From the IMG/VR virus record IMGVR_UViG_3300043021_000113: a DNA stretch of 64,000 nt; one strand, written 5' to 3'. The notes under the pieces were generated by a model. It made no database searches. It was given only the letters and a program-made list of their open reading frames with translations, and was not told the DNA's origin. Origin of the DNA: a virus (Duplodnaviria; Caudoviricetes). Position numbers and translations under genes: made by a program. Shown here piece by piece: positions 7,681 to 63,279 of this stretch (the stretch's first letter is position 1; the number at the start of each line of letters is the position of its first letter).

Positions 7681-8310
7681 TTAAAAAGGTATATAACCTC
7701 TCAAAATTTCATTTACTTTTGCTTTAACATCACTTGCCGCTGTAATTCCAAAATAATTGGGAATTGTAACACCTCCCAGAAACTCGCCAACATAAAGAGC
7801 TAAAGTTTCCTTAAAATTTATCGCTTGTTCATCTGTCATTCCAGCGGTATTTAACGCTTTAAGATCTACTAATTTATTAATTGCATCTATTGGTCCAGCT
7901 TTTGGATCTTTCTTTCTTAAAGATAAAGTAATTGATCCAGTAAGAGCAATTAATAAAAGCTTATTATCTATTGCTTCGCCTAAATTTCCAAGGCTAAATA
8001 AACTTTGAAATACTGCCACTCGTTCATCACTAGATAATGCTTTATAATCTTTTATAACACTAGCAACTGTTGGAGCCAATTTTATTGGTTCAACTTTTAC
8101 TTCTTCGGCAGTCTTGACTAACTCTTGAAGCTTATTAATTTTTAAATTAATTTCACTTTGTGCATTTAAAATATCATTAATTTTTATGCTTAATTCTTCG
8201 TTTATCATTTGATATTTACAATTATACGTTGGTATTATCTCTTCACAAAGACATTTACAATTTGTGCAGTATTCATTCATAAAATAACAAGAGAATTTAA
8301 ACCGCACCAA
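7681..8310 (-). CDS. hypothetical protein
   Basis: ORF; the real start is probably an internal Met. Confidence 0.55.
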   Translation of the reverse strand: MVRFKFSCYFMNEYCTNCKCLCEEIIPTYNCKYQMINEELSIKINDILNAQSEINLKINKLQELVKTAEEVKVEPIKLAPTVASVIKDYKALSSDERVAVFQSLFSLGNLGEAIDNKLLLIALTGSITLSLRKKDPKAGPIDAINKLVDLKALNTAGMTDEQAINFKETLALYVGEFLGGVTIPNYFGITAASDVKAKVNEILRGYIPF

Positions 8311-8506
8311 AAATCAATTATTCCATCTTTAGGAGATAATCCTTTATAAACTATTTCTTGATCACTAAAAATGTAATCTAAAACTAATTTTATACATTCT
8401 GGTTGTTGTTCGTAATTATCTTTAAGTGGTGGCGAACCATTCCAAAATAACGGAAATGGTAAAATTTCTTTGTCGTTAGGTATAAAATACCATAAACATT
8501 TTTTGC

Positions 8507-13831: not shown

Positions 13832-14900
13832 TTAATTATTTTTCAAACTTGGAAACACCCTCGACCAGTGACTGATAAATTCTCCATCTTCTGTTCTTTC
13901 ACAAACAGTAATTACTTTATTTGCCAAATGTTTTGGTCTTGCTCCACACTCTACAGCATCACTTCTAAAATCAATAACAAGATTGCTGTTTTCATCTCTA
14001 AAAATATAGCCTATCGCGTCTGATTGACTAGCAAAATATCTTTTAGCTTGACCTGCTAAATCTAATGATTTTGTAATATCAGTTGCTGTCTCTGTTTCAA
14101 TTTGAGTTAATTTAACATGACCAACAATAATTACATTTTCACAAACACTAGCAAATAACTTAATAACCTTGCTCATAGCTTCTTTTACTAATGTAAAACC
14201 TTTTCCAAATGGCAACAAATCAAGGTTAATGTCCTTTTCGCTTTTTCCTTGAAGTTTTAATTTTGCCAAATACTTTTCGCCATCTTCTGTAATTAAAAAA
14301 TCTTTAATTGCCAAAGGTCTTACCATTTCAGCCAATGCTGTTATCGTATCAAGAACAATAAACTTATAAGGATTGCCAGCATCTTTAATTGCTTTTACTA
14401 ATTCTTGAATTTCTTTAATAGAATTGATTGAAACTTTACATGCTGAAATGAACGTACTGCCTTGTTCCATATCCACGAGCAGCGAGTTGGGTAATTCTGC
14501 CAATAATGTTGTCTTGCCGCAATTTGTTATCATTAGAGCTTTTTATCTCTAATTTCTGGCGGTTTCCCGCTTACTTGGTCCAACATTTAAAACCAAGATA
14601 TTCAGATTTAATCTGACAGTTCAGCGTACATCACACCCTATAATATAGGGGCTGGAGACTCTTGGAGGGATTATTGAACGTTAACCTCACCCTCTACGCG
14701 TTACAAGGGCCTATACGTTTTAGGTCCTCACGATATTGTCATGCGCTAATTTTAGCGTTTAGATTCTTTCGTTTTTCCCCAGTTTCATATATACATTACT
14801 GTATATATGGGCCGTTGACCTTTGGCGAACCGAATAAAATTAAATTCTTTGGATCCTGTGTTTCTGCTGCTACTTTTCCTTTAGGTAATGTTATAGCCAT
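13832..14900 (-). CDS. AAA_24/Sak4-like ATPase, spliced (exons 14900-14818 and 14519-13832)
   Basis: the join restores Walker A FGSPKV|GKTT; Walker B IVLDTIT. Confidence 0.85.
14520..14817 (-). mobile_element. group I intron 2 (298 nt, no endonuclease)
   Basis: exon ends in U and intron ends in G; P7-like GCGUA/UACGC; splits Walker A in frame. Confidence 0.8.
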
Positions 14901-14911
14901 AAATTATACTT

Positions 14912-16605: not shown

Positions 16606-16698
16606 TTCTTCATTTTATTTGAGCGTTAATCCGCACCAACGGTTTATTCAGCTTTATTGCGTGTTTAGCGTTGGCTAAAATGCAGAAAATGTATTTAT

Positions 16699-18995
16699 TT
16701 AACCTAAATATAAATTACCTGAATTGTCCCTTTCTCTATTATCTATTGATCCTTGACTTAAAACTATTTCTAAGTCTTCTTCATCAATTGTTATATAATT
16801 TGTATTACGACTTGCGTCATTATACCATTTTTCATCATTAGTTCCTCTAATTACTAAAGAAAAAATTTCAGAAATTTTGCCAGGAACATACCTGGCTGCT
16901 CTTCCTCGTTATGTTAATGAATAATCGCTACTTATTCACCAAGTATTAAAATACTTGCTATATGTTACCATATAGACCAGACTATCTCTTCATTTTTCAA
17001 TGTCTCCTGTTTCGGATTGCTTAATCCTACGCCTTACGGCTAGTCGTTACACCTTCTTATTTCTAAGCTTGGCTCGGTATTCTGCTTGTATTTACCGAAT
17101 TAAAGAGATTTAAAGAGAGCCACGTTTTAATTTATACTCTAACTTCCAGATAAAACCTTTACATGTTTTTTGACCACCAGTAGCTGCAGCTGCAATTTGA
17201 CCACCTTTTGATTTTTCATCAACTACTTTGCTTGCTTCTTTGTATGAATCATATTCAGCAATTTTGTTACCTTTCATATCATATTGTACAACATTACAAA
17301 AATACAAGCTATTTTTGTTAATATCGGATATATCACCCAATTGATCTCCTTTATATCTCCAAATGTAGCCGTGAGCATGTTTTCTTTTACCCTTACAGCA
17401 CATTGTAATTTTACTTCCTGATGATAAACCTTCTGCTCTTACTGCATCTTCTGTTATTGGATATTCTGCAATTTTTTCACCAAAAATGTTATACTGAACA
17501 ACAGCTTTGATATTTTTTCTTTTAAGAACTACTTCTCGATCATATACTCTAAACCCCATATGATCTCCACCAGCAGTTCCATTAGTTAATCTATACTGAT
17601 CCTTATATTTTGCAATATAATCTACTTCAGCTTCTTTAGCTTCTTCTATTGTGTCAAATTCATCTATCTGTTCTATTTTCGGGATTAACCCACCTTTTTG
17701 AAGATGTTTAATCCATGCTATTTTATGATAGTTTAAATCTGGACGTGCTATTACGTCTCTTAAATGACCTCTGAGGCGTTGTTCTAGAGTTCTTGTTGTT
17801 ATTCCAACATATCTGATCTCATCAGTTGTTGGATCTTTTAATACGTATACTTTGCATTTCATAATGAATGCAAAGATACGGAATAATATTTAAACTACCA
17901 AGTCGTTGTATAATTAAAACCAAGCATTAACCCTCTGTGTTTTCTGTATGTTAGAACTATTACCACTTAAAATTATTGCTAAATTAACATCTGGAACATC
18001 AAGTCCAACATCTATAGCTTTACTTGAATTTAACACACCTTTTTTACATGCTTTGAATTCTTCCATAATTTCTCCACGCTTTTTCTTAGTATGTTTACTA
18101 TGGAATGTATAGCCTCGTTGTATTTTTTCTGCTTCTTCTATTGTATGGCTAAATGTAATAGCCTTAGCATTAGGTCTAGCATCTAAAATCTTTTGTGCTA
18201 TTTCAATTTTCTTAGGGTGTTTAGTTACAAATTCTTTTCGTTTTCTCATCGCATAACTCCAAGAATAAGCAATAGCTCTTAATTCTTCATTTATAGTGTG
18301 TATAGTTGCTTTATAATCTTTATGCTCTTTAGGATAAGCACAAAGTTTTTTTGCATATTCTAATCTATATATATAAGATTTAGGCCCTATACTACATTTC
18401 ATGGCCAAATTAAAATCAAAATTAAATGTTGCAAAACTTTTTAAAAATTCTGCATTCCATTTATTATACTCTATCATATCAACATTTAAAAGTACTTTAT
18501 ATTCTCTAACAGGTGATAACCACCCATTATTTACAGCTTCATTAAATGTTATTATATCACAAACTGGAGCATATTTTTTAATTAAAATTTCTTTACCATC
18601 TAATCTTTCTAATGTAGCAGTAAGACATAAAATCAATTTATATTTAACACACTTAAAAATTGTAGAAAACATATTAGAACATACAGCGTGGGCTTCATCT
18701 ATTATCAATAAATCCACGATATGCTCATCTTTAATAATCGTATTAACAATTTTAACAGTTACACTTTTAACTAAATTATTTTTAATGACCATATCTTGCC
18801 ATTGTTTCTGTAATTCATCAGTTGGTACAGAAACAAGAACACTAAGATTTGGATTTTTAGTAAGTAAAGCATCTATTAATAATTTTGCAGTATGTGTTTT
18901 ACCTAACCAAAGCCGGTACTGTAGACACACGTAGCTCTACCTCCGGCTTTTTTCCATTTTCTTATTCCTTCTTTTTGCCGTTCTGTTCTATCCAT
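16699..18995 (-). CDS. superfamily 2 helicase; spliced (intron 16907-17929) and frame-broken at Walker A (18901-18905)
   Basis: MDRTERQ...STGFG / GKTH; IIDEAH; LTAT; GLDVP; the join restores motif VI QRV|GRAAR. Confidence 0.8.
16907..17929 (-). mobile_element. group I intron 3 carrying a GIY-YIG endonuclease
   Basis: core GUAACGACUA and GAGAUAGUC; terminal G; in-frame join in helicase motif VI. Confidence 0.85.
17110..17862 (-). CDS. intron-encoded GIY-YIG homing endonuclease with two NUMOD1-like repeats
   Basis: KVYVL...RYVGIT...RLRGH; VVQY...G..IAEY repeats. Confidence 0.85.
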   Translation of the reverse strand: MKCKVYVLKDPTTDEIRYVGITTRTLEQRLRGHLRDVIARPDLNYHKIAWIKHLQKGGLIPKIEQIDEFDTIEEAKEAEVDYIAKYKDQYRLTNGTAGGDHMGFRVYDREVVLKRKNIKAVVQYNIFGEKIAEYPITEDAVRAEGLSSGSKITMCCKGKRKHAHGYIWRYKGDQLGDISDINKNSLYFCNVVQYDMKGNKIAEYDSYKEASKVVDEKSKGGQIAAAATGGQKTCKGFIWKLEYKLKRGSL

Positions 18996-35919: not shown

Positions 35920-38540
35920 TTAAATCAATAAAAATTTGTTAATATCGAAAAAATCCTTTGATGTATAATAATTGCTCATTGTTTCACAAGCTTTTTCAAA
36001 CTCTTTTAAAACTTTATTTTCAATTATCATATCATTTGTTAAACTATCATTAGTTATTATTCCACCAATAGTTCTACATCTAGACAAAGCAACGTATAAT
36101 TGCCCAGAAGAAAAAATGTTTTTTATATTAAGCTTTACTGTATCAAAAGTTAAACCTTGGCTCTTGTGTATTGTAACAGCCCAAGCTAAACGTAAAGGAA
36201 ATTGTGTTATTTTTCCCAATTCTTCTTGGGTTATTTCTTCTCCTTCTAATTTATACTTTTTGCTTATCCATTGATAAGGCTTAATATTTACTATTTCTCC
36301 ATTGTCTAGTTTAACGGTTATTACATCCTCTCCAAAGCCTGTAATTTCCCCTGTAGAACCATTAAAAAATCTTCCGTTAGAATCATTAATAATGGTCATT
36401 ACACGCGCTCCTAAGCGTAAAACAAGCTCTTTTTCGCAAGGTATAGAAGCTTCGTTAAACTCACCTTCTATTTTAGCTTTTGCTCTAATTAATTTTGAGC
36501 GTCCTAATTTAGCTAAATTTATTTTATCGGCTAAGTACTTATGCGTACAAAGTTCGACAAAATCAGAAGAATTAGTTTTATTCGAATTTTCTTTAAAATA
36601 TTTTATATCTGATTTTGTAAGTTTATACTTTCTTACATTATTAAGAAGTTTTATAAATTCAGGGTCTTTCTGTCTAAAAATTTTGTTTAATTCTAAAATA
36701 TGAAAACCTGTATTATTCCAAACTTTAGCATTAAAAAAGTAAAAATCATTATAAAAATTTTTAAGAATGTTTGCTTCTTCTTCTTTAACAACTGGTGGTA
36801 ATTGGTAAAGATCACCAAACATGACTAACTGAACACCTCCAAATGGTTTTGAATCTTTATGCGCCCATCTTAAAATCTTATCTATATAATCCAAAACATC
36901 AGCTCTTACCATTGAAATTTCATCAATAAATAAAACGTCAATAGCTCTTAGCATTTTTTGCTTGAATTTTAATTTTGAATAAGATATAGTACCATTTGGT
37001 GTTATAGGACCAAATGGTATTTGAAAAAGACTATGTAAAGTTGAACCTCCAACGTTAACTGCTGCTACTCCTGTTGGAGCTGCTACAATAACGTTTTTAT
37101 TCTCTATAAGATTTAATAGATAATTTAATAAAACCGTTTTCGTTATGTTATCTTATAGGCTTTTTATCCTATAATTCTATAAGTTATTAATTCCTTATAG
37201 TCCAGCATACATTTTCACCCTTGACTTAACCATTAGGGTGTTGGGCACTCTTGGAGATATTATATTTATTCAATCTCTATGCGTTACACTGTTTCAGAAC
37301 CTATACGAAATTTCTGAAATTAGCACGGTATTAGCATTCCAGCCTTCACCGTTTTTACCCAATAATAATCTTTATGATTTCTCATAAAGACGGCAATATT
37401 CTAAATATCGTTCATACTTGCGATCTAAGTATATAGTTGCGTTTTTGTATATTTGAGTTAAAAATTTATAACCTTTTAAATTTGAATAATAAATTTCTTT
37501 AGTTATGTTATTATTACTTCTTGGATTAGCATTAGTTTTTGCTTCTTTAAATGGTATATCTTCTATGTAGTCTTGCATTTTTTCTAAAAAATTTTTAGTT
37601 CCTAATAAAGAACAAGTCATTTTTGTATGTTCCTTGTTTTGATAACTAATACAACCATCCCCGTCAAAATAACCTCTAATAAAATGAAGTATAAGATCTT
37701 GTGATTTAAAAATTGAAATATCTGGAAATGTTAAAATTAAAGATTTTCTAGGTACAACACCCAAATTATTTAATGCAGTCCAAATAGTTTTGTTATTACA
37801 ACCCCATCTGCAACGTTCGCATTCTTTGTCTCCACATTTAACCTTGCTAATCCTAACTCTTTCAGAATCAGTGCATTTTATAAATTTATTAAATTTTTCT
37901 AAATGTCCAGCATCTGAACCCTTTAGTGATATTTCAAAATCATAACAATCTTTTCCAACATAACCGTCAGCATAAATAAAACCTAACCAATAAGCTTTTT
38001 CTTCAGTATCAATTGTATTAAATACATTTTCATTAAAACGTGGTCTATTTTGATAATTAATTATTTTTATACCCATTTTCTTTAATCTTCTAATTAAAGC
38101 GTCACGAGTCAGACCATATTTTACAGCAATTTTAGTAGCGCTTGGCTCTTGATTATTATTTAATGCTTCTATATATTCATCTTGTGCATGTTTAAATGCT
38201 ATAATTTGCTTAAGGTTTATTCCACCTTGTGCAAGATAACCTCTACGCTTTAATTCATCATCAAGCGTGCGGTCTTTTAATTTTAACTCTTTTTTTACAG
38301 CTCTTACAGGACCAAATCCTGATAAGTACAACTCTATTCCTTTTTCTATTATTTCTTGATTCATACATTTGTATTATAAAATACAAATATATAAAATAAA
38401 TAATAGAAACGCAAGTTATGGAAACTTTATTATTTACTACCACTTCCAGCTTTGCCTGTCAAGAATAAATGCTCTCCTTTATCTATCACAATACTTACAG
38501 CCTTTTTCATTTCATCTGTAATTATTATTTCTTGTTGCAT
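35920..38540 (-). CDS. Pif1/RecD-like SF1B helicase, spliced (exons 38540-38439 and 37140-35920)
   Basis: the join restores TGKAGSG|KT; APTGVAA; IDEISM; GDLYQLPP; TIHKSQG; YVALSR. Confidence 0.9.
37141..38438 (-). mobile_element. group I intron 5 carrying a LAGLIDADG endonuclease
   Basis: P3 UUGGGUA/UGCCCAA; P7 GCAUA/UAUGC; ends CAUAACG; splits Walker A in frame. Confidence 0.85.
37372..38364 (-). CDS. intron-encoded LAGLIDADG endonuclease
   Basis: AYWLGFIYADG; HFIRGYFDGDG. Confidence 0.85.
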   Translation of the reverse strand: MNQEIIEKGIELYLSGFGPVRAVKKELKLKDRTLDDELKRRGYLAQGGINLKQIIAFKHAQDEYIEALNNNQEPSATKIAVKYGLTRDALIRRLKKMGIKIINYQNRPRFNENVFNTIDTEEKAYWLGFIYADGYVGKDCYDFEISLKGSDAGHLEKFNKFIKCTDSERVRISKVKCGDKECERCRWGCNNKTIWTALNNLGVVPRKSLILTFPDISIFKSQDLILHFIRGYFDGDGCISYQNKEHTKMTCSLLGTKNFLEKMQDYIEDIPFKEAKTNANPRSNNNITKEIYYSNLKGYKFLTQIYKNATIYLDRKYERYLEYCRLYEKS

Positions 38541-38552
38541 AATTAAAATTTT

Positions 38553-41984: not shown

Positions 41985-44792
41985 TTTAAATATCTTTTAT
42001 GCTAAGCAAACATAAATCTTTTCTTTATCAATACATTTGCTCATAAGTTCTTTTAATTCTTTAGCATCTTGCAATGTTTGACTGTATTTTCTATGTTCAG
42101 TTGATATTTCTTGCTTAATGCGTTTTATATCAGCACTTATTGCTCTAAGAATTGCTCGTAAGCCATGTGCATCGTCAATTAATCTTAAAACTCTTGGTTT
42201 GTCATAATCAGAAATAAAATGCAATCTAGGATATAATCCTAATTGCTTTTTGTTTATATCTCTAAGCTTAAGAAAATTGCGATATTGTTTCTTTAATTGT
42301 TCGTATTCTTTATAAAGCTTTTTTACCTTTTTCATTTAAATTTTCAATAAAAATTTTTGTTATTACGTCAATATTATTTGTTATTTGCCAATAAATATCA
42401 ATCTTCTTTTCTTTTTCTCCTGTTGGCCAATCTTTAAGTATTATTTCATATTCACATCGAGCCCAAAATTGATATTTTGACCAATGAAGAATAAAATTTT
42501 TGAATTCTTCAAAAGTCTTGGGCTTTTCTTGATTTCTTGAGTAGATATTTAAAAGGTATGGCATAATGTCATACCCTTTAAATTCTCTACTGTTGAAGTC
42601 ATAAATTATACAATTAAAACTTCTAATCATTATTATTAACTTTCTATTTTAAATGTAAAAACTCTGTCTCTATCATTGACTTTGACATTAGAATTTCACC
42701 TTGTAAATGTAAGAATTCATTTATAATACTACGTGAAGTGCTCATTTTGATTTCTGTTGATTCTAGTTCTAACATTAAATCTTCAATCACATTGTACATT
42801 TGGTTTAATTCTTCTTTTACGTTATTTTCAAATTCTATTATTGTCATTATATAAACTCCTAACTTCTTTTATTACACACTCAACACCCATTGCTATTTCT
42901 AGCAACTCATCATCTATTGCTTCATAAGTTTCATCGTCTAGCTCGTCTTCGTCTATTTCATCCAATAACTCGCTAAGCTCTATTAACTCTTCTTTAATTT
43001 CTAGAAGTCTAGCTTCTAACATTTCGTGGTATTCTTTAAATTTCATGGGTAACTTTTTATTTTCTTAACTGTTTTTATACATTTTTTCAAATTGTCTTTT
43101 TCTATCGCAAAAACGATTTTTAACATTGAAGTTTCAATGTTTGAATTCTTAACTTCTGTTTTAGAAAATACTTCCATATCATCTAAAATCAGTTTTAATT
43201 CATTAAGAACTAATATTTTATAGTTAGAAAAAGAAATTCCGTTTTCGTAACATTCAATTTTGAATTCTTCTAATTTGTAATTAGCATTGTTTATACTGTT
43301 AAGTTCATTTTCTATGTCCCATCTTAATTTAACAATAGCACCTTTAATATCAAAAACTCCTTCATAATTATTAGAGTTTACTTCTATAAAAGCAATAGAA
43401 TTTAATTTATCTGTAATTTTTTTTAGCTTTTCTATTATAAGCCTTCTGTATCTTCCGTGTGTTAACATTTAAAATCTCGTTTAGTTCAATAACTGCTGGC
43501 ATAGGCCAAATCTCAACAATACTTCCTCGCATATATTCAAGCTCTGCTTGAACTAAGCGTCGTTTATTTGACAATAACATTTTACCAATCTTCAAGTTCT
43601 CCAAATTGGCTATCTAAGAAATCTTCTGTTTCTTGTTGCCAATCTTCGGAGTCATTAAAATTAGTTTCATTATCGAAAAATTCTGCTAATTCTTCGTAAT
43701 TTTCGAAAATTTCATTATCTAATGTTTCGAAAACTTTTGTTTTCTTCTGTTTCATAATTTATTTTTCTTTTTATATTTGCAATTGTCGCATTTGTGATTA
43801 TGTGGGTGTCCTAAATACCAATCATGACCTAAGCAAGCAAGAGTTAACATTCCAATTGCTACTACGGATCCAATGACAATGAATAATTCCATATAAGATG
43901 TTTTTTTGATCTTTCCCAGTCATTGTTCATTTGGTAAATTAACGCTAAAAGTGCAATCACTATTGCAATAACTGAAAAAATATTTAATAAGTTACTTTTT
44001 ATTTTTTGTTTCACATTTACTTTTTTATAATTCACGAAGTTTAAGCTCTGAAAAAGCAATTAAACCTTTAAAATCTAAAAATTAAGTCCATATATTATCA
44101 AAAACTTTTTCTTTGCATTTCTCGATTTTCTTTAATAAAAGCTCATCAATTGATCCATTCCATAGTTCCACTTGTTCATTTGAAAGCATAGTAGATGGAT
44201 AAATACAAATCATTTCTTCATTTTCGAAATCATAAACTATTACATAAGCAGAAATAAAATCATAGTTATTTATTAATTTATTAATATAATAAAAAACTTC
44301 ATGATCTACTACTTTATAAATTGAACCTAATTTTAATTCTTCCATAATTAAACAGCTTTAAATACTAAATAACCATTAGATTTTAAAAGTTTAATCGCTT
44401 TTTCAATTTCAACCTTTCTCTGAGCGTTCCAATCAGCCGTTTCATCATCTATAACGATAACTTCTGGCTTCTCTTCTTTAGGTCTATTTCTAGCGTAAAT
44501 CTCTTTCGATATATTATACGCTGTTTTATACATGAATTCAACCTTACCCATATAAAGAGGTTCTGTTTGAGTAACAAAATAACTTCTGTCCTCACTGTCT
44601 TCTTTTACAAAGCCAGATTCTTTAATGGCTCTATAAAAATAAGTATTCGAATAAATTTTCGAAATCTCAGTCTTAAACTCACTTTTAAGAAATTTCTTCC
44701 CTCGTAGCTTATTAAGCTGAGTTGTCATTTTTTCTATGTTTACCATAATAAAAATGGCAGTTCACCTATACACTGCCAGGTTTTAAAAATGT

Positions 44793-51642: not shown

Positions 51643-51802
51643 TACTATTTACACTTACTTTCAAGTGTGAAGTTTTATATGTTAATAAATTAAGTTATAT
51701 TATTTTTTAAATAAAATTATTCCATCAGCAGTTAGTTTTAAAAACTAACTACTGACTTCCTCTTACTAATTAACAATAAGAAAAATTAGGAATAATTAAA
51801 GT

Positions 51803-54221
51803 TTAAAGGTTAATAGAACGTAATTGTTTGAGAATATAATTCGCGGTTTCTTTTGTTACTGAAGCATTAATAACAATTGCGCCATCTTTTATGCCATCAA
51901 TTGATACTTTATTTTCTCCTTCAGTAACGTTAATTTCTGCTTTCATGCCATTTGATGCTTTAACTATTGCATTAGCAGAATTGCTCGTAGTTTTGAAATC
52001 TACAAGTTCAAAAGTTATTAATGTTTTATCGCCAACGTTAGCGTAAACTTTGGTTAAATTATCATTAGCTGTTAGTTCTATTGCATTAAAAGAACCTAAA
52101 GTTATTGTGTTATCTACTGGTTTATCAGCTGCAAATGCTTTAATACCAACAGTTATAACAACAAACGTAATAATAAGCCAAAATACAAACTTTCTCATAA
52201 TTTTTTACACTTACTCTCAAGTGTGAAGTTTTAAATAATTAATATTTTATATTATTTTATTAAATAATAAATTATAGCGTAAAGTGATATTAGCAAATAA
52301 ACTGTAAATAATGCTAATGTAACACTTTTTAAAAATCTTTTCATTGTTTTTTGTTTTGATAGACTATGCGTTTATTATCTGGTGAGACAAAAATTACGCT
52401 TGAACTATCTTTGGCTATCTTAATATGTGATAAATTCTTATCTTTGATCACGTAATTTTTAAATTTTCCGTGATCATGCGTTGAGGTGTATTTATATTTC
52501 AAACATTCTCTTTTCTCGTTAAAATATAAAATTACTTTTTCTTTTTCATCAACCCAAAATTCGCTTGGTTCTGTATCATAATAAATCGCATTGTTATTCT
52601 CATAAAAATTTATAAGATCAAAACGATTTACAAACTTAGTCTCTTGGGCATTAGCGCCCAAGAAAACTAAGCATAACAAATAAAAAATATGTTTCATTTA
52701 CTGAAGCCTTATAAAATTAGAGCCGTTTTCTTGATGGATCTCCCAACCTTTATTTATCTTTTCAAAATAACATTTATTATCTGAACATTTAAGTTGGACA
52801 TAATATCTATTTTTATTTTTATTTATTATTTCAAACTCCATCGTTTTTGAAAGCCCTTTCTCTTTATCTCGCATTTCTAAAAAAATTGATTGATCTTTAA
52901 TAATTATTGTTCCGTTAACTTTAAATATATTCTCTGTTTCGGATTCATAATATGTAGAAAAATCAAACTTTTTTTGACTGCAACTTGAAAGTATAAATGA
53001 AAAACTAATTATAATTAAATAAATAAAATTTTTCATTGTAGTTTTATATGATCATAACCATTTTCTTTATAAAGTTCCCAACCATTATTGGTTTTTTCAA
53101 TATAACCTTTAAATATTATAGGTGCACTTTTAGAATGAATATAATATTTATCACCAGTTTTATTTATTATTCTAAATTCTTCACTAGAAAATTCATTGTT
53201 TTCATCTATTATTTCCATAAAAATTGAATAATCATCAATAATTAATTTTCCTTTAATATTACTTGATTTGTTATCACTAAAATCATATACTGAAGAAAAT
53301 TTAATTTCTTTTTGATGATAGCTTGAAAGTATAAATACAAAACTAGCTATAATTAAATAAATAAAATTTTTCATTGTTAAAGCCAAATTAATTTCTTTTT
53401 TATGTTCTTTTTGTATTTTTCCCATTCTTCGTTTAATTTTTCAGGACTTAAAAGATAATCGCTCATAATAACTGGTAAATCTTTACAACCACCAAAAACT
53501 TTTTCGTTATTTTGATAAGCATCATATTTAGTATAAATATATAAACCGTAATCATAAACTTTATTATATATAAAAAAACCACCTCCAAAAGCTACAAATT
53601 CTTTTTTATTTAAAAAATAACCTTTAGTTCCTGTTCTTAAATCATAAACATTTAATGGTATAGCATTAGCATAATGATCAAAACCGTCTCTAAGTCTAAA
53701 ATCTTCTCCTATTTTTATCATCATTAATTACGCTTAACCTATACAGCATTAGGTTTTAAATTATTTTTATTTTATTTTTATAAACATTGAAACCTTATTG
53801 TTTTATCTCCGAATTCTTCTGGAATATATAACATCCATTTTTTATCAGAAAAAATCTTTCTAATGTAATATTTAAAACCAGAATCTTTATTTTCTACAAA
53901 ATATTTATATTCTTTGAATTCTTCATTTTCAATTGTTGTTTCAATATCTAATATTTTAAATTCTATGTAAAACTTAACATCAGTATTTTTATTAATAAAA
54001 TTTAAAATTATTTCTTCTTTTGTTTCAATAACATTTCCGTTTAAATAGTTAAAGTCAGGAATTTTCCCACTATTTATTACTTCTTGGCAATAATCAAGAG
54101 TTAATTTTGGTGTTGTTATTTCTCTATCTTTAAAATCCTTTGTTTTATTATTACAGCTTGAAAATATAACAATAAAACTAGCTATAATTAAATATAGAAT
54201 ATTTCTCATTTTTAATTGCAT
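51803..54221 (-). CDS. cluster of small secreted/lipoprotein genes (51803, 52341, 52698, 53033, 53778) with one interleaved cytoplasmic ORF (53377)
   Basis: signal peptides; shared MKNFIYLIIxSFxFILSS(C/Y). Confidence 0.6.
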
Positions 54222-55289
54222 TTAACCTTTATAATGCTAGGTTTTAATTATTATTATTTATCCATTCTTTCTCCATTTCTTCAAGCTCTAAAACTTTATC
54301 GCTAACAAGAACTGGTATATCATTATTTCCAAAGAATTTCTTTGAATGTTCCCAATCATCAACTTTACAATATATGTGTTTATTGTAAAAATAACCGTCA
54401 GGATGTATGTTTGCTGTATTTTCACCATAAAACATCCATCTATGATCAATCATTATAAAATTATTTTTATTTAAATTTATTCCTTTATCTTTTGTTTTAA
54501 TGTCATAAATATTTACAGGATCAAATTTACTTATAATTTCATTTATCACTTTAAAATACGCTTAGCCTTTACAACGTTAGGTTTATATATTATTTAATCA
54601 ATATTCCAATAATCTATTTCTTCATTTAATATTGCTTCATCCCAAGATAATTCATATCCTGTAGAAGTATAATCATTTTCTCTTAAATATTTAAATTTAC
54701 ATTTAAGCGTAAATTCTTTAGATTTACTAACTAATTTTTTATATTCTTTTTCATCAAAAATAATATTATATATTTTATTATCAGTTAAACACTGTACACA
54801 ATAAAGATTATTTTCAATAGATTTATAATAAATTTGACGAGATTTTATTTTTATTTCTTCATTAGTTAAAGCATTAAATATTTTTAAATAAGAAATATTA
54901 AAAGGAGACCAAGAAGAATATTTAAATATATTTGAAAATTTAAATTTTACTTCTGCTTCAAAATCTTTATAAGTTTCATTCCATTTTTTTTCAATTTCTT
55001 TTATATTTAATTTATATTTAGAATATAAAATTGGAATTTCATTATATTTATTTTTATTATAATTATTTAAATATTCAATTTTACAATAAAAAAAACCATT
55101 CCAACCAATATTTCCCCATTTTACTTCTTCATTATAAATTGTCCATTCATCATTTATTTTTTTAAAAGAATTTTTATTTAAAGAATCAAAATTTAATGAA
55201 TGATAATAACAATTTACAAATTCATTATTATTCATAACAACTCTGCGCTTAATCTACACAACGCCTAGACTTTAAATAAATTAATTAGT

Positions 55290-57198
55290 TCGGTTGAGGG
55301 AATTGAACCCTTCAATGGCAAACCTGCGCAACCGATAAATTGCTGACTTTCACAAGCAAGCAATCCCGCAATTACAAATCATATTAATTCAAAATTATGA
55401 AAACCTTTGTAGCTCTCTAGGAATCGAACCTAGAACTACCCACCAGGAAGCTTGAAACCTAATTTCACAATTAAGTTTGCACTAAAACCAATAAAAATAC
55501 TTAACTTCATGAAAACAAACAATACGTGTGACTTTCCGGGAATTGAACCCGGAATTACCCAAACCAGGAAGTCGCAGCTCTAACTTCACAGCCAAAACTG
55601 ATAAAATCTAACTATTTAACTATTTACCATTTTAAAAAATTATCAAAATGAAAAAAATCACAGAAAATGTGCGGCTCTCTGAGAATTGAACTCAGAATTA
55701 CCCAAAAAACCAGGAAGCCACAAACCCAGTTTCACAACTGAATTTGTAAATAAAAAATCACACAAAAAATATATAAAAAATATTATGTGAGGCTTGCTGG
55801 GAATCGAACCCAGGATCAATCTAACCGTAGACAAGCCGAGAATAAACCTAACTTCACAGTCCAGCTATTCTAAGTGAAAAAAACAAAAATTATGATATAC
55901 AAATGTTGAGGCTTTCCAAGAATTGAACTTGGAATTATCCATACCAGGAAGCCAAATTTTAAAGACGCCGAATTTCACAACCCAGCGTCTTTGTGTAGTG
56001 TGTCTAATTTTTAATGAACTATTGTTTTGTTATTATTAAAGTAAATGTACAAAGATGAAGTGGACTTCTAGGAATTGAACCTAAAATTACCTAAACCAAG
56101 AGTCCATATTTAAAAGAGCCTAATTTCACAATCAAGCTCTTTTTCTTAGCATGTTTTACTAATTCTCTATATTATGAACAAAGTACAATTCTATTCGTGG
56201 CCCGCTGGGAATTGAACCCAGCATTACCTAAACCAAGAGGCCTCAAGCCTAGCTTCACAGTCAAGCTTGTTGTAACAACTTAAATTTTCAAAAAAACATG
56301 ATTATATTATGAGTATGGCGGCCTTTTAGGAATCGAACCTAATTTTAATCCAATAAGGCCAATAAATCTCCAAATTTCACAACTTAGAGATTCAAAAATT
56401 ATTATCAACTAATTCAAAACTATTATTTATAAAAAGCGTGACTACAAATGTAGTGGTCTTTTAGGAATCGAACCTAAATTACGCTAACCTGCAAGACCAA
56501 CCCTTAATTTCACAATTAAAGGGTAACAATAAACTAAAAATAAATATATATGGAAAATCAAACTCTGTGGCTTTTAAGGACTCGAACCTTTATGCACGCC
56601 AAAACACATGTAAAGCCAGTTGTGTTTTTCATGGTTATCAAGTACGATATTATGTGAATATATGTGAATAATACTGCGATATTATAAAAAGAACTGCCGA
56701 ACTTCACAGCCCAGCAGTTCGCGCTTTAATCATATTAATTTAATATAAAAATACATTTCAAAAAGAAACTTTATGCGTGCGGCTTTCGAGGACTTGAACC
56801 TCAATGTATGCCTTTATACATAGAAAGCCAAATAATCTAATTTCACAATTAAATTATTTTTTACCCAACACTAAAAAATTAACATGATATGAAAAACGTT
56901 GAGGCTTCTAAGGATTCGAACCTTAATAGCGCCTAACCGCGAAGCCCAAAATTCCTAATCTCACGATCGAGAATTTAAATTTCAAATAACAAATCTTCAG
57001 GTTATGAAAAAATCATAAGTGCCTGCCTGGGAGTCGAACCCAGGAGTGGGATTTTGTAGACTTTAGTTGTGTATAATCAATTACTATTACCTGTTGAAAC
57101 AAGTGATTTTAACTACATTTAATTTTAATTTTATTGTTAAAAGAAATTTATTGTTTATTTTAAAAAAATAAACAAACCCACTGTCTTCCTTGCCAGGC
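55290..57198 (-). ncRNA. array of 14 anticodon-less tRNA-like elements with GUGA-tetraloop hairpins and unique spacers
   Basis: units at 55290, 55411, 55530, 55673, 55791, 55910, 56062, 56199, 56320, 56455, 56569, 56781, 56903 and 57021; T-loop GTTCRANTC; compensatory stem changes; G-U pairs only on the minus strand. Confidence 0.85.
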
Positions 57199-57344
57199 TC
57201 TGAACCTTAACGCTTTAAGAGTTCAGTTGTTCAAAAGAACTGTAACGCTTTACATGAACCTTGAACTAATAAAAAAAATTCGCCAAATTTTCCGTGATTA
57301 CTCGAAGCACGGACTAAGTGATCATGAAAAAAAGGATCTGACCA

Positions 57345-57677
57345 TTAGTTGAGCCAGTATGGCTTATTACTAACAGCTAATATATCATGGTTTGCGAGTT
57401 TTAACTTTTCAGGATCTGTGTTAAATCTATAGCCAAGTATTTTACGATTCAACCTAAAATAACTTTCGGGACTTTCCTTAGTTATAACAGTGATCACATG
57501 TTGAAAAGTATTTTTATTGTCTACTTCTTCAAACTTGAATCCCTTATAAGCTCTAACTCTAACCGCTGGCTTTGTGATATATAAGCGTATTTTATAAATA
57601 AAACCTAGGTACACGCCGTTTACATCATATTTCCCGCGATTTGGGTCCTTGATATCTGAATACTTCATCTCACCCAT
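57345..57677 (-). CDS. hypothetical protein immediately upstream of the RNA array
   Basis: 110 aa basic ORF. Confidence 0.55.
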   Translation of the reverse strand: MGEMKYSDIKDPNRGKYDVNGVYLGFIYKIRLYITKPAVRVRAYKGFKFEEVDNKNTFQHVITVITKESPESYFRLNRKILGYRFNTDPEKLKLANHDILAVSNKPYWLN

Positions 57678-59181
57678 TTTAAGGTTTCTGAACCTAAAAA
57701 TCGGGTATACTCTAAGAGCTTTCCATTGTTAAGTTCAATTGAGATGATAAGCTTTTTTGTCTCATAATTTCTTATGCTTATATAATTAACATCGCATAAA
57801 ATGCAAGATATTTCTTGATTTAATAATTCTTGTTTAAGACAAACTCGACCATCAGAAAGTATCTTAAAATAACAATTGTTAATTTCAAGTGTTTTGCTTT
57901 TTTTGGAAAGTTTACTAACGTTTATTGATTCCAAGTCTGGACATTTAGCCAGACTTGAAATTACACGTTCTTTCACTTCATCATTGCAAAACAAAATTTC
58001 TTCTCCTGATGTTGTTTTTATTATAAGTTTATATTGTTTCATTTATGAAAAATCACTATGAATAACAACTCCTTTGTTTTTTATTAGATGCAAACCATCT
58101 TTTATGACTATATGGTCAGCTGTACAGGATTTCCAGTATTCACCATACATTCCAGAAAGTTTGTATCTTATAAAACCATTACTTACTACTTCTTGAAAAT
58201 CGTCTTCATAAATAATTTCGTTAAAATCCAAATCTTCGTCTGAATGAACATTAACGGTTATTCCTTTAGGTGCTTTTTCAAGAAATTTTAAAAATTCTTC
58301 TTGATTGAATAAATAAAATCTATCTTTTAATCTAACTTCGTATCTCATTTTTTAAAAAGGCATATCGTCTAATTCTGGTTTCGTTGAGGTATCAAGCATT
58401 TTTTGTGCTTTTTTAATTTCAGTGAAAACTGATGATGCACCAGTCATAGTTGAAGAGTTATAATTAAAACTTAATAATCCAGCTGGAAAACTAGCTTCTG
58501 CATAATATCCGCGGTCATGATAAGTTATCGTAAAAGTTGATAACGTGAACATCGGATAGCCTAAATAGCCAGTTATTAAGTTTTTATTATTATATGGGCC
58601 CCTATCTGTTTTTAGATGTAAACGACCATCTCCTGTTACTATGTAATGAGTACTGGTTATTAATACTTCGTTTTTATCTTTATAATTAACAGCACGGAGT
58701 TTGACATTTTTGTCGAACGCATCAAGTTCAGTGAAAAGATCCAGAGCATCTGCTAAGCTCTGAATCAATTCTATTTTATCTTCATATTCTAATCTGTACA
58801 TATATAACTATAAGTTGAGGTTCCAGAATTCTTGTTATGAGTTATTGTATGCTTTGTTTTATCTTTTAAAGTAAAATTAATGGTTACTTTGTCGTCTTCT
58901 TTTGTAAATATAAGATAAGTTGGAAAAACTCTAAGATCGCTTTTTATGCCGTCTTTATCTATATAATTATTTTTAAAAACTACATGACCATTATTAAAAA
59001 CACGGAATTTATCATCAGAAAATATTTTTGTTTGATCATTCGTCGAATCTACTTCTTGAACTCTAAAATCCCTTATGTCTTTATTATTAATTACTGCTGA
59101 ATTAATAAATTTGTTTAATCCTTCGTTATTTACAAATATTGTTGTTTTATCAAATGTTATTCTATACATAGTTAAATAATC

Positions 59182-59208
59182 ATGGTTAACCTATACACCA
59201 TAAGGTTT
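59182..59208 (-). promoter_or_regulatory. representative copy of the recurrent 5'-leader H-type pseudoknot (10 copies, 44755-60506)
   Basis: AACCT-T-ATGGT-GTAT-AGGTT-A-ACCAT; covariation across copies. Confidence 0.7.
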
Positions 59209-60511
59209 AGATGAATAATTTAATATAATTTAACAATTAATATGTCTTCAAAGCTATTTATAATCATTGCTTCGCCATTTTTCTTTTTGAACATTGCTGC
59301 TCCTGATTCTGTAAATTTTACAAAATAAGCTAAAATGTCAAGATTATTTATTTTTATATAATAAAAAACGTTTGTATCTAGCTTTGTAAATTTGCAGTTT
59401 TTATCTATATAAAGAGAATTATTAGATAATGCGTTATGCATAAATCCTGGAGCTATTGGTTCAGCTTGACGAATGAATTCTTGAATTTTAAAGTGTCGAT
59501 ACTCGCCAATAGATAAAGCAATTGTTACTGTATCATTAGCTATCTCTTTAATAACTCCAAACCAACCTTTAATTCGAACGTAATTTCCGGTTTTTACTTC
59601 TAATTTCTCAAGAGCAAATGATCTGTGTTGATTAAATCCAGATTCATCAAATATCATTCCTAAGCATTTACAAGTTAAATCTTGGTTTATTTGAACATCT
59701 AATGGATCGATTATTACTCTTGAATTATCAAGAGTTCTTCTAAGAATATATACTATCATAAATTAATTGATTTTTAAAACTTGAGAGTATTTAGGATTTG
59801 AGCATTAAATGTTGGTGAGATTTTATTTATTCTTACATCACCAGATAATCTATCAACTTGGCCGTTTATAAGATGAATGGAAATTAAAGTTATGCCGTCA
59901 TTGAGCATTACTTCTACTTCATCTCCTCTGGAAATTACTTTAGTTTCTATATTAGTAACTCCTAAAGCAGCTTTAGTTAAATAGTCAATAGTGAAATTTT
60001 CACTTTTAACAATGCTTAATTGTTCCATGAAGCTTTCTTTTATACTTTGAAAGCTTGAAAATACTTTCTGTTTCATAATTTTTGTGTTTTATTCTTGGTT
60101 TTTCTTTTCAGCACATAAAATGGCAATTATAGCAACATAAACAATGGTTATAAATATAGCTAAAAATACTGGTGCATTTGTAACCATTAAAAGAATAAAT
60201 ACTGCTATAAAAGCAATTAAACTTGCGATTAATTTTAAAATAAAATTTACCATGATTTAATAATTGTTACTGTAACATTCACCCATTATCTCTTTTTTGC
60301 CAGATAAGACATCTGCTGTGTATATATTGGTATATTTACCAACATAATGGAAATCATGTAATGTGTGTACTGTGCCTTGAAGATTTAATGGATTAATTAC
60401 TGTTTCATAAGCTCTCCTATCCCAAGGATTACTTGAAGAATTGTTTTTTAAAATAATTGTTATGTTCATAATTTTTAATGCATTTTACCTTTACAATGCT
60501 AGGTTTGAATT

Positions 60512-60581
60512 AATAATCGCTGTTTCGTCTTAATTTTCAAAGACTCGTCAGAAGCTTTCTAAGCTTGACAGCGAGATTATT
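60512..60581 (-). ncRNA. type III hammerhead ribozyme
   Basis: CGCUGUC|AAGCUU-AGA-AAGCUU-CUGACGA-GUCUU...AAGAC-GAAACAGCG: complete core and three stems. Confidence 0.9.
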
Positions 60582-61980: not shown

Positions 61981-62031
61981 TTTTAATTGTTTTTTTATTG
62001 GTTAATAATTAGTTTTCAAATTATGCATAAC

Positions 62032-62700
62032 TAATGCATAACTTGAAACTAATTAAAAATTTTTTGTTATAATACGCGCACGCGCGTACATTATATTATT
62101 GGTTACTTTTAATTTCTTAAAATTAATCCCAATAATCAAAAGAATTATTCAAAGAAAAACACATATGTTTTTTACTTACTTTTTTATTTAATTCTTCGAT
62201 TCCTTCTTCTTTATATTTTGTTTTCATTTTTGTTACACGACAACCTAGCTCATTTCTACGTTCAAAATTGTTTTTGAAAATATCTAATACTTCTTTTTGA
62301 TTGTTTACAATATCGCTATATTCTCTTAAAATCTGCTTTGTTTGTTTGCATCTTTCTCTTAATTCTTCTTCGTATTTATGGCCAAGTTCGAAAAGTTCTA
62401 TTTTATGTTTAAGTTCTCTTTCTTCGTGTGAATACTCTTTTACTACGTCTGCATAACGTTTGCCGTTATATTCTTTGTCTTCTTGGTTTTGGTAAAAATC
62501 GTATATTTTACGAATATATCTTAAACGTTCTTTGAACCCTTCTAATTCTTTTTTGCTTTCTTCGAATTCCCAATCTGTCATCATATCTTTTTAATTTTTA
62601 AGTTGTTTTATTGATTTTTAAATAGTTACGCAAATAATGCATAACTTGAAATTAATTTAATTTTTTTTATTATAATTCGCGCGCGTACATTATATTATTG
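62032..62700. repeat. two ~70-bp direct repeats (62032-62101 and 62635-62700) flanking ORF 62123..62584
   Basis: TAATGCATAACTTGAAA...TTATAAT...CGCGCGTACATTATATTATTG. Confidence 0.8.
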
Positions 62701-63236
62701 CACGAATTAAAGTAAAAAGAGTGTAAGCCGCACATAATATCAGCACGGCTTTAGTGAACTTGTCAAGCTTCATGATTAATACTGTTTAACTCGTCATATA
62801 AAACTTTTAACTTTCTATCTATTTTGTCAAGTTCTATCTCAACTGGCCAACAGTAAAACTCAAGTTCTTCAGAGTCTTTGTAAGACTCTTGGAGATCTTG
62901 AATTTCTTCGATAAGCTCTTTGCGGACTTTATATAAAACATCCATTTCATCTTTTATCTTTTTTGCGTTCATGATTAAATGTTATTATTATTGAACCATT
63001 CTGGACGTTCTCTTAATATATCATACAGCTCATCGTAATTCTCCGAATACCAAGCTTTAGATATATTCGCATTCTCTTCTTCTCTCTTCTTATAAGAAGA
63101 AGAATCTTTGGCTTTATCTCCTAAAGCTGTTTTTAAATCAGCCATTACAGCTAAATTATTATTTATTACCATTTGAGCTGCAAAACCCAAAAGCTTTTCG
63201 TACTTTGTCTTCATTATTTATTTTTTTTTAATTCGC

Positions 63237-63279
63237 GCCCTAAGAAAGAATCGAACTTTCTTTAACTCCAAAGTAAGGC
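63237..63279 (-). ncRNA. solo anticodon-less tRNA-like element
   Basis: GCCTTA-CT-TTGG-AG-TTAA-AGAAAG-TTCGATT-CTTTCT-TAGGGC. Confidence 0.7.

Follow-up and report, generated by a model that had tools for sequence, protein, structure and literature searches.

A virus of the Caudoviricetes (Duplodnaviria; IMG/VR record IMGVR_UViG_3300043021_000113) was analyzed over a stretch of 64,000 nucleotides (nt), which is referred to here as the window. The phage is very AT-rich, with a contig of up to 152,878 bp. Positions 55288–57198 of the window (1.9 kb, 1911 nt) are free of open reading frames (ORFs), and the surrounding gene block lies entirely on the minus strand. When this region is read on the minus strand, 14 transfer RNA (tRNA)-like elements without an anticodon arm, called mini-tRNAs below, bracket 13 cassettes, each composed of a U-rich stretch and a hairpin capped by GUGA. 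The 13 intervals between the elements consist of an AU-rich spacer of 37–70 nt (48% U and 33% A in the RNA sense; 632 nt for the 13 spacers) followed by a GUGA-capped hairpin of 9–16 bp, and the end of the hairpin is 2–10 nt from the next mini-tRNA in 12 of the 13 units. The order of mini-tRNA, U-rich anti-start stretch, GUGA hairpin and mini-tRNA on a minus-strand RNA had been proposed in an earlier sequence-only reading, and it is borne out by covariation and G-U pairing. A blastn search of the array against 50,697 phage records gave no match, and Rfam gave none at gathering scores anywhere in the window.

The mini-tRNAs are built from an acceptor stem, a short D-like hairpin with GG and a tRNA-type T arm (NGTTCRANTCN). 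None of the 14 elements has an anticodon arm, and the D hairpin is separated from the T arm by 4–5 nt. The stacked acceptor and T arms amount to 10–12 bp, and the T-loop follows the tRNA consensus. At the 3′ end of each element, seven acceptor-strand bases are followed by an invariant discriminator C and then mostly by A; CCA is not encoded at these ends. ARAGORN reported no tRNA gene and no transfer-messenger RNA (tmRNA) in the window. The Rfam tRNA model reached 16.6 bits against a gathering score of 29, a canonical cloverleaf being absent, and the Rfam tmRNA matches were confined to the T-loop. At pair 3:70, 9 of 12 units have G-C and none has G-U, which does not correspond to the alanine identity of tmRNA. 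YrlA and Y RNAs were not matched by Rfam, and no TROVE domain was found in a Pfam scan of 50 of the window's ORFs (all those of at least 50 amino acids in the early region at 50–64 kb and larger ones elsewhere). A split or circularly permuted tRNA was rejected, as the acceptor strands are in normal order. The mini-tRNAs are probably cutting signals between the cassettes.

All coordinates of the array refer to the minus strand. In the leader element U1 (57019..57198), which combines acceptor, D-like and T arms, about 120 nt of AU-rich sequence are inserted at the place of the anticodon arm; its T-loop is GGTTCGACTCC, and its 3′ acceptor strand ends in ...GGCAC. U1 scores only 14.9 bits with R1, a covariance model of hairpin plus mini-tRNA, because no GUGA hairpin precedes it. 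Cassette 1 (56946..57018) comprises the seed spacer at 56980–57018 (UUUUUUCAUAAC) and the GUGA hairpin at 56946–56979, and it is followed by U2 (56901..56945; acceptor, short D hairpin and T arm, no anticodon arm), which scores 73.8 bits including the hairpin and shows the three helices in its minimum-free-energy fold. Cassette 2 (56830..56900), with the seed AACGUUUUUCAUAUCAUG and a GUGA hairpin, precedes U3 (56779..56829). The GUGA hairpin of cassette 3 (56681..56778) is the only one with a full U-tract after it and is thus terminator-like; an insert of 63 nt (56618–56680) separates this cassette from U4 (56567..56617), which scores 23 bits without an adjacent hairpin. The array continues with cassette 4 (56496..56566; UUUUCCAUAUAUAU and a GUGA hairpin), U5 (56453..56495) and cassette 5 (56363..56452), where CAU occurs at UACAUUUG only and whose spacer is the sole one with a full host-type promoter match (TTG-N-TAGTTTTG). 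Next come U6 (56318..56362), cassette 6 (56244..56317; CAUACUCAUAAUAUAAUCAUGUUUUUUUG... and a GUGA hairpin), U7 (56197..56243), cassette 7 (56112..56196; UUGUUCAUAAUAUAGAGAAUUAG and a GUGA hairpin), U8 with a 6-nt linker (56060..56111; 82.4 bits) and cassette 8 (55961..56059), which was placed from the interval layout. The last third holds U9 (55908..55960), cassette 9 (55845..55907; UAUAUCAUAAUUUUUG and a GUGA hairpin), U10 (55789..55844), cassette 10 (55716..55788; ACAUAAUAUUUUUU...), U11 (55671..55715), cassette 11 (55575..55670; UUUUUUUCAUUUUGAUAAU...), U12 (55528..55574), cassette 12 (55455..55527; ACGUAUUGUUUGUUUUCAUGAAG...), U13 (55409..55454) and cassette 13 (55337..55408; AAAGGUUUUCAUAAUUUUGAAUUAA... 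and the hairpin GCUUGCUUGUGAAAGUCAGCAA). U14 (55288..55336) is the last unit; a pseudoknot-like leader (55241–55273) and ORF 54594..55235 lie beyond it. U3, U5–U7 and U9–U13 were delimited by the unit alignment, covariation and the R1 model, with folding in addition for U12.

Two related features were seen outside the array. Just upstream of the leader unit, 57292–57333 (minus strand) holds a U7-CAU stretch, UUUUUUUCAUGAUCAC, and then a hairpin of a non-GUGA type (CCGUG...CACGG); it directly follows the terminator-like hairpin of ORF 57345..57677 and is a possible extra cassette with a fourteenth seed. Farther upstream, at 63235–63279 (minus strand), an isolated anticodon-less mini-tRNA (18.7 bits with R1, no GUGA hairpin) follows a terminator-like hairpin, with 22 nt left to the start codon of ORF 62975..63214; it is possibly a signal for the processing of an mRNA 5′ end. 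A type III hammerhead ribozyme was also noticed at 60517–60574 (minus strand), between two small ORFs of the same early operon (Rfam 47.8 bits, gathering score 48.5, E 1e-9). Both the isolated mini-tRNA and the hammerhead are in keeping with an early operon dependent on the cleavage of RNA.

The helices of the array are supported by covariation. In an alignment of 12 units, 88.9% of the cells are paired and 17 of the 21 pairs show double changes, which none of 500 shuffles reached. Pairing amounts to 96.3% in the GUGA hairpin, 73% in the acceptor and 98% in the T arm, and neither shuffles nor slid registers approach the observed covariation of these three helices. U-G and G-U pairs are frequent, and they would be A-C mismatches if read on the opposite strand; as the G-U pairs fit the minus strand only, the functional molecule is the minus-strand RNA. 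A GUGA tetraloop caps 13 of 13 hairpins and is closed by a U-A or C-G pair. The constant GUGA “handle” of the sequence-only reading therefore holds for the structure and the tetraloop and not for the sequence of the stem, which varies with compensation. Two resemblances to anticodon arms were rejected. The GUGA hairpin is not a displaced tRNA-His anticodon arm (loop UUGUGAA), since positions 32:38 and 33:37 covary as Watson–Crick pairs, including C-G, and GUGA is consequently a tetraloop; UUCAUAA is not the anticodon loop of tRNA-Met, as no flanking stem is possible.

The spacers had been read as antisense to translation-initiation regions, and the observations behind this claim stood up to controls. 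The AT skew flips over the array, and each of the eight ATGs that had been located on the plus strand is present in its place. CAT in the RNA sense occurs 21 times in the 13 spacers, compared with 11.5 ± 2.4 after dinucleotide-preserving shuffling (0 of 5000 shuffles reached 21), and a CAU lies at most 30 nt from the upstream mini-tRNA in 13 of 13 spacers, where 6.0 ± 1.7 would be expected (0 of 5000 shuffles). Gibbs sampling recovered the motif TCATAAT, or (U)UCAUAAU, with a log-likelihood of 69.7 versus 60.7 ± 2.2 for shuffled spacers (about 4 standard deviations). TCATAAT occurs nine times in the minus sense of the window: four times in the 1.9-kb array and five times inside ORFs. Its reverse complement, ATTATGA, is the commonest start context of the phage (16 of 116 genes). 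The phage's start regions are rich in A at −3 to −5 and at −11 to −14, and no Shine–Dalgarno signal is found in them; in Bacteroidetes mRNAs, A is enriched at −3, −6 and −11 to −15 (PMC7366714). When scored with a start-site matrix derived from the phage's own genes, the best ATG per spacer averages 5.7 bits, real starts 6.9 and other ATGs 2.6–3.1, with the score of the spacers being partly due to composition and the matrix being low in information. The core, a U-run followed by CAUA(A/U)U, is present in approximately 9 of the 13 spacers at variable distances from the mini-tRNA (0–23 nt) and the hairpin (22–62 nt), and its predicted unpaired probability is moderate, at 0.4–0.9 in most spacers. 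The CAU enrichment, the motif, the start-context match and the skew reversal together confirm that the observation is real and no by-product of AT richness.

The spacers pair better than their shuffled versions with real start regions, but not with internal coding windows, in agreement with the sequence-only reading. The mean RNAduplex energy of the 13 spacers with 92 phage start regions is −9.65 kcal/mol, compared with −8.69 ± 0.16 kcal/mol for shuffled spacers, −8.60 kcal/mol for reversed spacers and −8.86 kcal/mol for internal coding windows. The AUG is covered in 775 of the 815 duplexes of −8 kcal/mol or lower. The best target candidate is the pairing of cassette 6 (56270–56317) with the start region of ORF 62123..62584 (62560–62610), which involves 24 bp at −24.6 kcal/mol and spans −23 to +5 of that gene; it is marginal, since 2 of 58 shuffled null sets are as low. 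About 13 distinct targets had been suggested, and this part of the claim did not survive: one core seed is common to the spacers, and their ATG-anchored identity to gene starts is no higher than that between real starts. As the ATG-anchored matches are unremarkable and the best duplex is marginal, 13 guides for 13 targets are unsupported, and the sequences are better described as a common core seed with variable flanks.

A comparable design is known from bacteria. In B. thetaiotaomicron (Bacteroides), GibS and 14 FopS paralogues are small RNAs (sRNAs) in which a hairpin comes after a single-stranded 5′ seed; the seed is given as GUGUUUUUCAUAG... or GTGTTTTTCATAGTATTAGA..., with the 70% consensus GTGTTTTTCATAGTATTAGATTTAAGGTTAACAAA (PMC7366714, PMC11697453). 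On target mRNAs, including that of susC BT_3983, GibS pairs across the start codon and FopS adjoining it (PMC7366714, PMC11697453). The block of susC BT_3983 translation by FopS-10 has been demonstrated with compensatory mutations and in vitro translation, and SusC-like transporters are enriched among the predicted targets (PMC11697453). The protein RbpB has also been reported to bind FopS sRNAs at their single-stranded 5′ part, as well as AU-rich sequences that surround ribosome-binding sites, and one FopS copy has been reported from a Caudovirales phage (PMC11697453).

The design of the phage cassettes matches these experimentally characterized anti-start-codon sRNAs. Both are multicopy (14 paralogues in B. 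thetaiotaomicron and 13 cassettes in the phage), and in both a U-rich 5′ stretch precedes a G(U/C/G)GA-capped hairpin; all 13 phage hairpins conform to the GNGA-type cap. In the host sRNAs, the 5′ stretch is a single-stranded seed of the type ...UUUUUCAUA(G/A)UAU... for pairing at start codons, and the phage spacers have a partial likeness to it. Twenty FopS-like copies collected from Bacteroidales genomes start with GTGTTTTTCAT(A/G)GTATTAGA immediately 3′ of a TAnnTTTG promoter and end in a GGTTGTC-G(T/C/G)GA-GACAACC hairpin followed by a U-tract. Their cap is of the GUC-G(U/C/G/A)GA-GAC type, with GUGA the commonest, and this is the same tetraloop type as in the phage. The first bases of several spacers, counted from the predicted RNase Z site, are similar to those with which transcription of the host sRNAs starts; AACGUUUUUCAUAU opens cassette 2, for comparison with ACGUUUUUUUCAUAG at the beginning of the Rfam BTnc231 consensus. 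Local alignment of the spacers to the R1′ seed consensus (GUGUUUUUCAUAGUAUUAGA...) scored 18.85, compared with 16.33 ± 0.85 for shuffled spacers and 13.9 for random genome segments; the 3′ half of this seed is not conserved in the spacers. The two systems differ in their organization. Host FopS genes are dispersed, each with its own sigma-ABfr promoter, a transcription start at the first base of the seed and a U-tract terminator, whereas the phage cassettes are in tandem, are delimited by tRNA-like elements and lack a promoter of their own and a U-tract in 12 of 13 cases. Only hairpin 3 passed the terminator scan, and TAnnTTTG occurs three times in the array, once with a TTG upstream that completes the sigma-ABfr pattern (TTG-N19-21-TAnnTTTG). 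An adjacency of FopS and tRNA was also seen in a host: contig 18 of a Bacteroidales genome (G048; locus L280) has a FopS-like gene with a genuine tRNA gene about 10 nt after its terminator.

Pattern scans yielded about 250 loci, to which the R1 model was applied; most of them proved to be ordinary tRNA pairs and were removed by it. Hairpin plus mini-tRNA units were picked out at 33–40 bits in the viral contigs L018, L101 (which carries a phage-type exonuclease gene), L167 and L217 and in the Tannerellaceae-binned contig L130. ARAGORN found no tRNA in these related arrays apart from a genuine tRNA-Gln that is interleaved with the units in the L167 span. Two of the related contigs carry GUGUUUUUCAUG or ACGUUUUUCAU. 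L217 shows the order of mini-tRNA, UUUUGUAUCAUAUUG, GUGA hairpin and mini-tRNA immediately before a gene, and it also has an array with GTGTTTTTCATG, GATTCATAATTG and GTGTTTTTCATGGT, the last of which is identical to host FopS over its first 14 nt. L167 has ACGTTTTTCAT, then a hairpin and a mini-tRNA; its order reads promoter-like TAGTTTTT, ACGTTTTTCATTTG, GUGA hairpin and mini-tRNA. The word formed by a U-run and CAU occurs 6 times in the related arrays against 0.42 expected (about 14-fold), with 2 of the 6 lying inside mini-tRNAs. Since the same layout recurs in L018, L101, L130, L167 and L217, the module is a family, in which FopS-like anti-start seeds are found in some members, including this phage. 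Separate observations were made at other loci. In two phages of 185–194 kb with large tRNA clusters, the ARAGORN calls of a “permuted tmRNA” (L007, 3300–3440; L016, 2339–2418; minus strand) start at an anticodon-less mini-tRNA (GAUGU...ACAUCAC) and may represent a mini-tRNA-type element in place of a tmRNA. The first pattern scan also gave a chance match to an unrelated phage, L001; at 8300–9400 (plus strand), this 121-kb contig has a GC-rich, ORF-poor region of about 1.1 kb near a tRNA cluster, which may be a large structured RNA.

A second strain of the phage (L003) allows the spacers to be followed over a short evolutionary distance. Its flanks are 98.2% identical, and the 1911-nt array differs at 3 positions where 35 would be expected. 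Turnover of the spacers, as implied by the idea of a CRISPR-like guide repertoire, was not seen: the 632 spacer nucleotides contain no difference, against 11.6 expected from the flanks, which excludes CRISPR-like turnover at this scale. The identity of the spacers fits purifying selection. The suggestion of guides with a protein-bound handle likewise found no counterpart, as neither a Cas nor an RNA-binding domain was found in the 50 Pfam-scanned ORFs, both flanking ORFs included. A CRISPR array was rejected on these grounds and also on the identity of the repeat units, which is 64% per column.

The minimal substrate that RNase P and RNase Z require is a stacked acceptor and T arm, and tRNA precursors without CCA are cut after the discriminator. 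A precursor transcribed from the array would therefore be cut into mini-tRNAs and seed-hairpin RNAs. Homologues of both enzymes are present in B. thetaiotaomicron (PMC7366714), and the bracketing of 13 cassettes by 14 mini-tRNAs fits release by tRNA-processing enzymes. The interpretation that is favored here, with moderate confidence, is that a minus-strand precursor is punctuated by mini-tRNAs and gives rise to 13 FopS/GibS-like anti-start sRNAs that block translation initiation. The whole 1.9-kb stretch would be transcribed as a single minus-strand RNA in the same direction as all the phage genes. Host RNase P would cut at the 5′ side of each mini-tRNA, after the preceding hairpin, and RNase Z would cut after the invariant discriminator C, so that 14 mini-tRNAs and 13 seed-hairpin RNAs of about 60–100 nt would be produced. 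Each freed sRNA would have a single-stranded U-rich 5′ stretch with the core (U)UUUCAUA(A/U)U, closed by the GUGA-tetraloop hairpin. In host mRNAs, phage mRNAs or both, this stretch is predicted to pair with A-rich start regions without a Shine–Dalgarno sequence (AAAUUAUGAAAA) and in this way to block initiation, a mode of action that has been demonstrated for GibS and FopS in Bacteroides.

Several results weigh against this interpretation. Spacers 3, 5, 8 and 10 have a weak core only, the gain in mean duplex energy is small and generic (about 1 kcal/mol), and no single phage target stands out by ATG-anchored matching or RNAduplex. The acceptor stems are often of 5–6 bp with poorly kept outer pairs, so the efficiency of RNase P may drop. 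Likeness to the host sRNAs is faint in model searches: Rfam BTnc231 (RF04180) scores 25.2 bits on cassette 7 (E 0.009 in a 1-kb search; gathering score 80.4), Rfam GibS (RF04182) scores 21.4 bits on cassette 13 (gathering score 115) with both the hairpin (GCUUGUGA-AAGU) and the 5′ stretch (GGUUUUCAUAAUUUUGAAU versus GUGUUUUUCAUAGUAUUAGAU) taking part in the alignment, and no match was obtained with an nhmmer profile of the 20 host copies in the window (array at E ≤ 10) or in the related loci. By promoter, terminator and model tests, the cassettes are not members of the FopS/GibS family, and their likeness to it may be convergent. The units of L130 have other spacer sequences; consequently, the anti-start seed is not universal in the family of arrays. 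Finally, the tract of low divergence between the two strains runs about 500 nt into ORF 54594..55235, and it may thus be a recombination patch and not a trace of selection.

Other explanations of the array have to be considered. The mini-tRNAs themselves might be the functional products, acting as decoys or sponges for proteins that bind the tRNA elbow or acceptor (tRNA-targeting toxins, the CCA-adding enzyme, SmpB, EF-Tu or modification enzymes), with the spacers and hairpins only aiding processing and stability. The mini-tRNAs are the best-conserved parts of the array, with an invariant T-loop and a T arm that is 98% paired. Other large phages (L007/L016, L167, L217) have similar elements, either isolated or interspersed with real tRNA genes, one mini-tRNA of the window stands alone (63235–63279), and tRNA enzymes are known to act on the tRNA-like domains of bacterial Y RNAs (PMC4201824). 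This explanation accounts for neither the spacer motif, the start-region complementarity and the full conservation of the spacers between strains, nor for the covarying GUGA hairpin that is tied to each unit, and the identity elements that were checked are absent (3:70 is G-C, not G-U, in 9 of 12 units). It is considered improbable, and it is compatible with the release of anti-start sRNAs and not exclusive of it.

It is also improbable that the cassettes are protein sponges or mimics, whose 13 FopS-like single-stranded AU-rich 5′ regions would titrate a putative host RRM protein of the RbpB type or ribosomal protein S1 and thereby rewire post-transcriptional control. The high copy number and the common core motif would suit titration, and RbpB binds the 5′ part of FopS and AU-rich sequences (PMC11697453). 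However, the conserved CAU and the start-context match are more specific than a general AU-rich protein site needs, and no RNA-binding domain, RRM among them, was found in the Pfam-scanned ORFs.

A role of the TCATAAT/U-rich motif as a transcription signal (−10-like, or a terminator or antiterminator), with the units being made separately and their likeness to starts incidental, is very unlikely. CATAAT does resemble a −10 hexamer, exact TAnnTTTG is found in two spacers (in one of them preceded by TTG), a full terminator is present in hairpin 3, and the first cassette of L167 appears to start at the promoter-like TAGTTTTT. On the other hand, TCATAAT outside the array occurs only inside ORFs and never in other intergenic regions, the host-type promoters of this phage are TTG-N19-21-TAnnTTTG, the distances of the motif to the mini-tRNA and the hairpin are variable, and sigma-70-like sites are not enriched (25 versus 18.2 ± 4.9). 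One promoter per spacer was rejected by the promoter, motif-location and sigma-70/terminator scans. That the seed features are chance products of AT-rich filler between tRNA-like repeats is hardly credible: the start-site matrix is low in information, and short ATG-containing words are frequent because the spacers are 80% A+U, but dinucleotide-preserving shuffles never reach the observed CAT counts, the motif log-likelihood is about 4 standard deviations above the null with an effect that is specific to strand and place, and the motif recurs in unrelated, GC-richer phages.

The wider window gives information on the host and on the early region in which the array lies. Host-type promoters (TTG-N19-21-TAnnTTTG) lie upstream of five genes, and for the ribonucleotide reductase, the nearest counterpart is the enzyme of a Bacteroides phage (43% identity). 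The promoters, the lack of a Shine–Dalgarno signal and the ribonucleotide reductase point to a host among the Bacteroidota. The two flanking proteins had no match in IMG/VR, and a search of a large protein collection with the 213-amino-acid flanking protein returned only itself. A leader of about 30 nt recurs just upstream of early-gene starts on the minus strand (55241–55273, 59170–59219, 53725–53777, 54560–54590, 44747–44792, 60480–60510, 51650–51680 and 52205–52235, all found by eye); its two covarying complementary blocks, e.g., AAACCUAAUGCUGUAUAGGUUAAGCGU, make it a pseudoknot candidate at the Shine–Dalgarno place. The upstream regions at 61981–62122 and 62585–62762 (minus strand) have a long repeat in common, AATAATATAATGTACGCGCG...TTTCAAGTTATGCATTA, and may be candidate early promoters or operators. 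Elsewhere, at 36955–38552, 16606–17862 and 14534–14911 (minus strand), replication genes are split by long structured gaps and homing-endonuclease ORFs (LAGLIDADG, 37372..38364; GIY-YIG/NUMOD, 17110..17862). These are likely group I introns, though there is no Rfam match at gathering scores.

There are partial parallels to the array in known systems. The tRNA-like elements of the TMERs (tRNA-miRNA-encoded RNAs) of murine gammaherpesvirus 68 are non-aminoacylatable, and their hairpins are released by the host tRNA 3′-processing enzyme. The TMERs likewise form a viral cluster of tRNA-like elements, each linked to regulatory hairpin RNAs (PMC4337559). They differ in belonging to a eukaryotic virus, in having RNA polymerase III promoters inside the tRNA-like element and in their hairpins being Dicer substrates that give microRNAs, whereas the phage array has a bacterial host, a single-stranded seed as its regulatory part and tRNA-like elements without an anticodon arm. 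Plant mitochondrial t-elements and tRNA punctuation (PMC1920247) and synthetic tRNA-guide RNA arrays use tRNA shapes purely as cleavage signals for RNase P and RNase Z, as is proposed for the phage array, and n+1 tRNA-like elements flank n products, as they do in the array. The known cases punctuate mRNAs or engineered guide RNAs, in contrast to putative antisense sRNAs in the phage. The tRNA-like domains of tmRNA and YrlA (PMC4201824) have the acceptor, the T arm and a reduced D loop without an anticodon arm and are recognized by tRNA enzymes, but the phage array has no G3-U70, tag reading frame or Ro-binding helix, and no Rsr (TROVE) gene is found among the scanned ORFs. In the literature that was searched, no natural array of sRNAs punctuated by tRNA-like elements is described for phages or bacteria.

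A broader proposal can be made only tentatively, and it is thought rather unlikely as a whole. Arrays punctuated by tRNA-like elements may be a general, undescribed phage platform for batteries of trans-acting sRNAs in Bacteroidota and a natural equivalent of engineered tRNA-guide RNA arrays. In this phage, the platform would carry 13 FopS-type seed mimics. Following infection, these would stop the translation of mRNAs with the standard A-rich AUGAAA start, e.g., those for outer-membrane transporters of the SusC-like type or for immediate-early proteins of the phage itself; a pseudoknot leader might protect early genes from the block. Provided that the cassettes are set free and act, the phage would possess a device made of RNA alone, in many copies, that is directed against the initiation of translation in a phylum without Shine–Dalgarno pairing. 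Its logic, and perhaps also its sequence, would be modelled on the host FopS regulators of SusC-type transporters. The punctuation by tRNA-like elements that is known from organelles and engineered guide-RNA arrays would be used naturally in bacteria for the production of sRNAs. The GUGA hairpin together with the anticodon-less mini-tRNA is a searchable signature for such arrays, which tRNA finders and Rfam miss, and the suggestion that sRNAs of the FopS type are spread by phages (PMC11697453) becomes testable.

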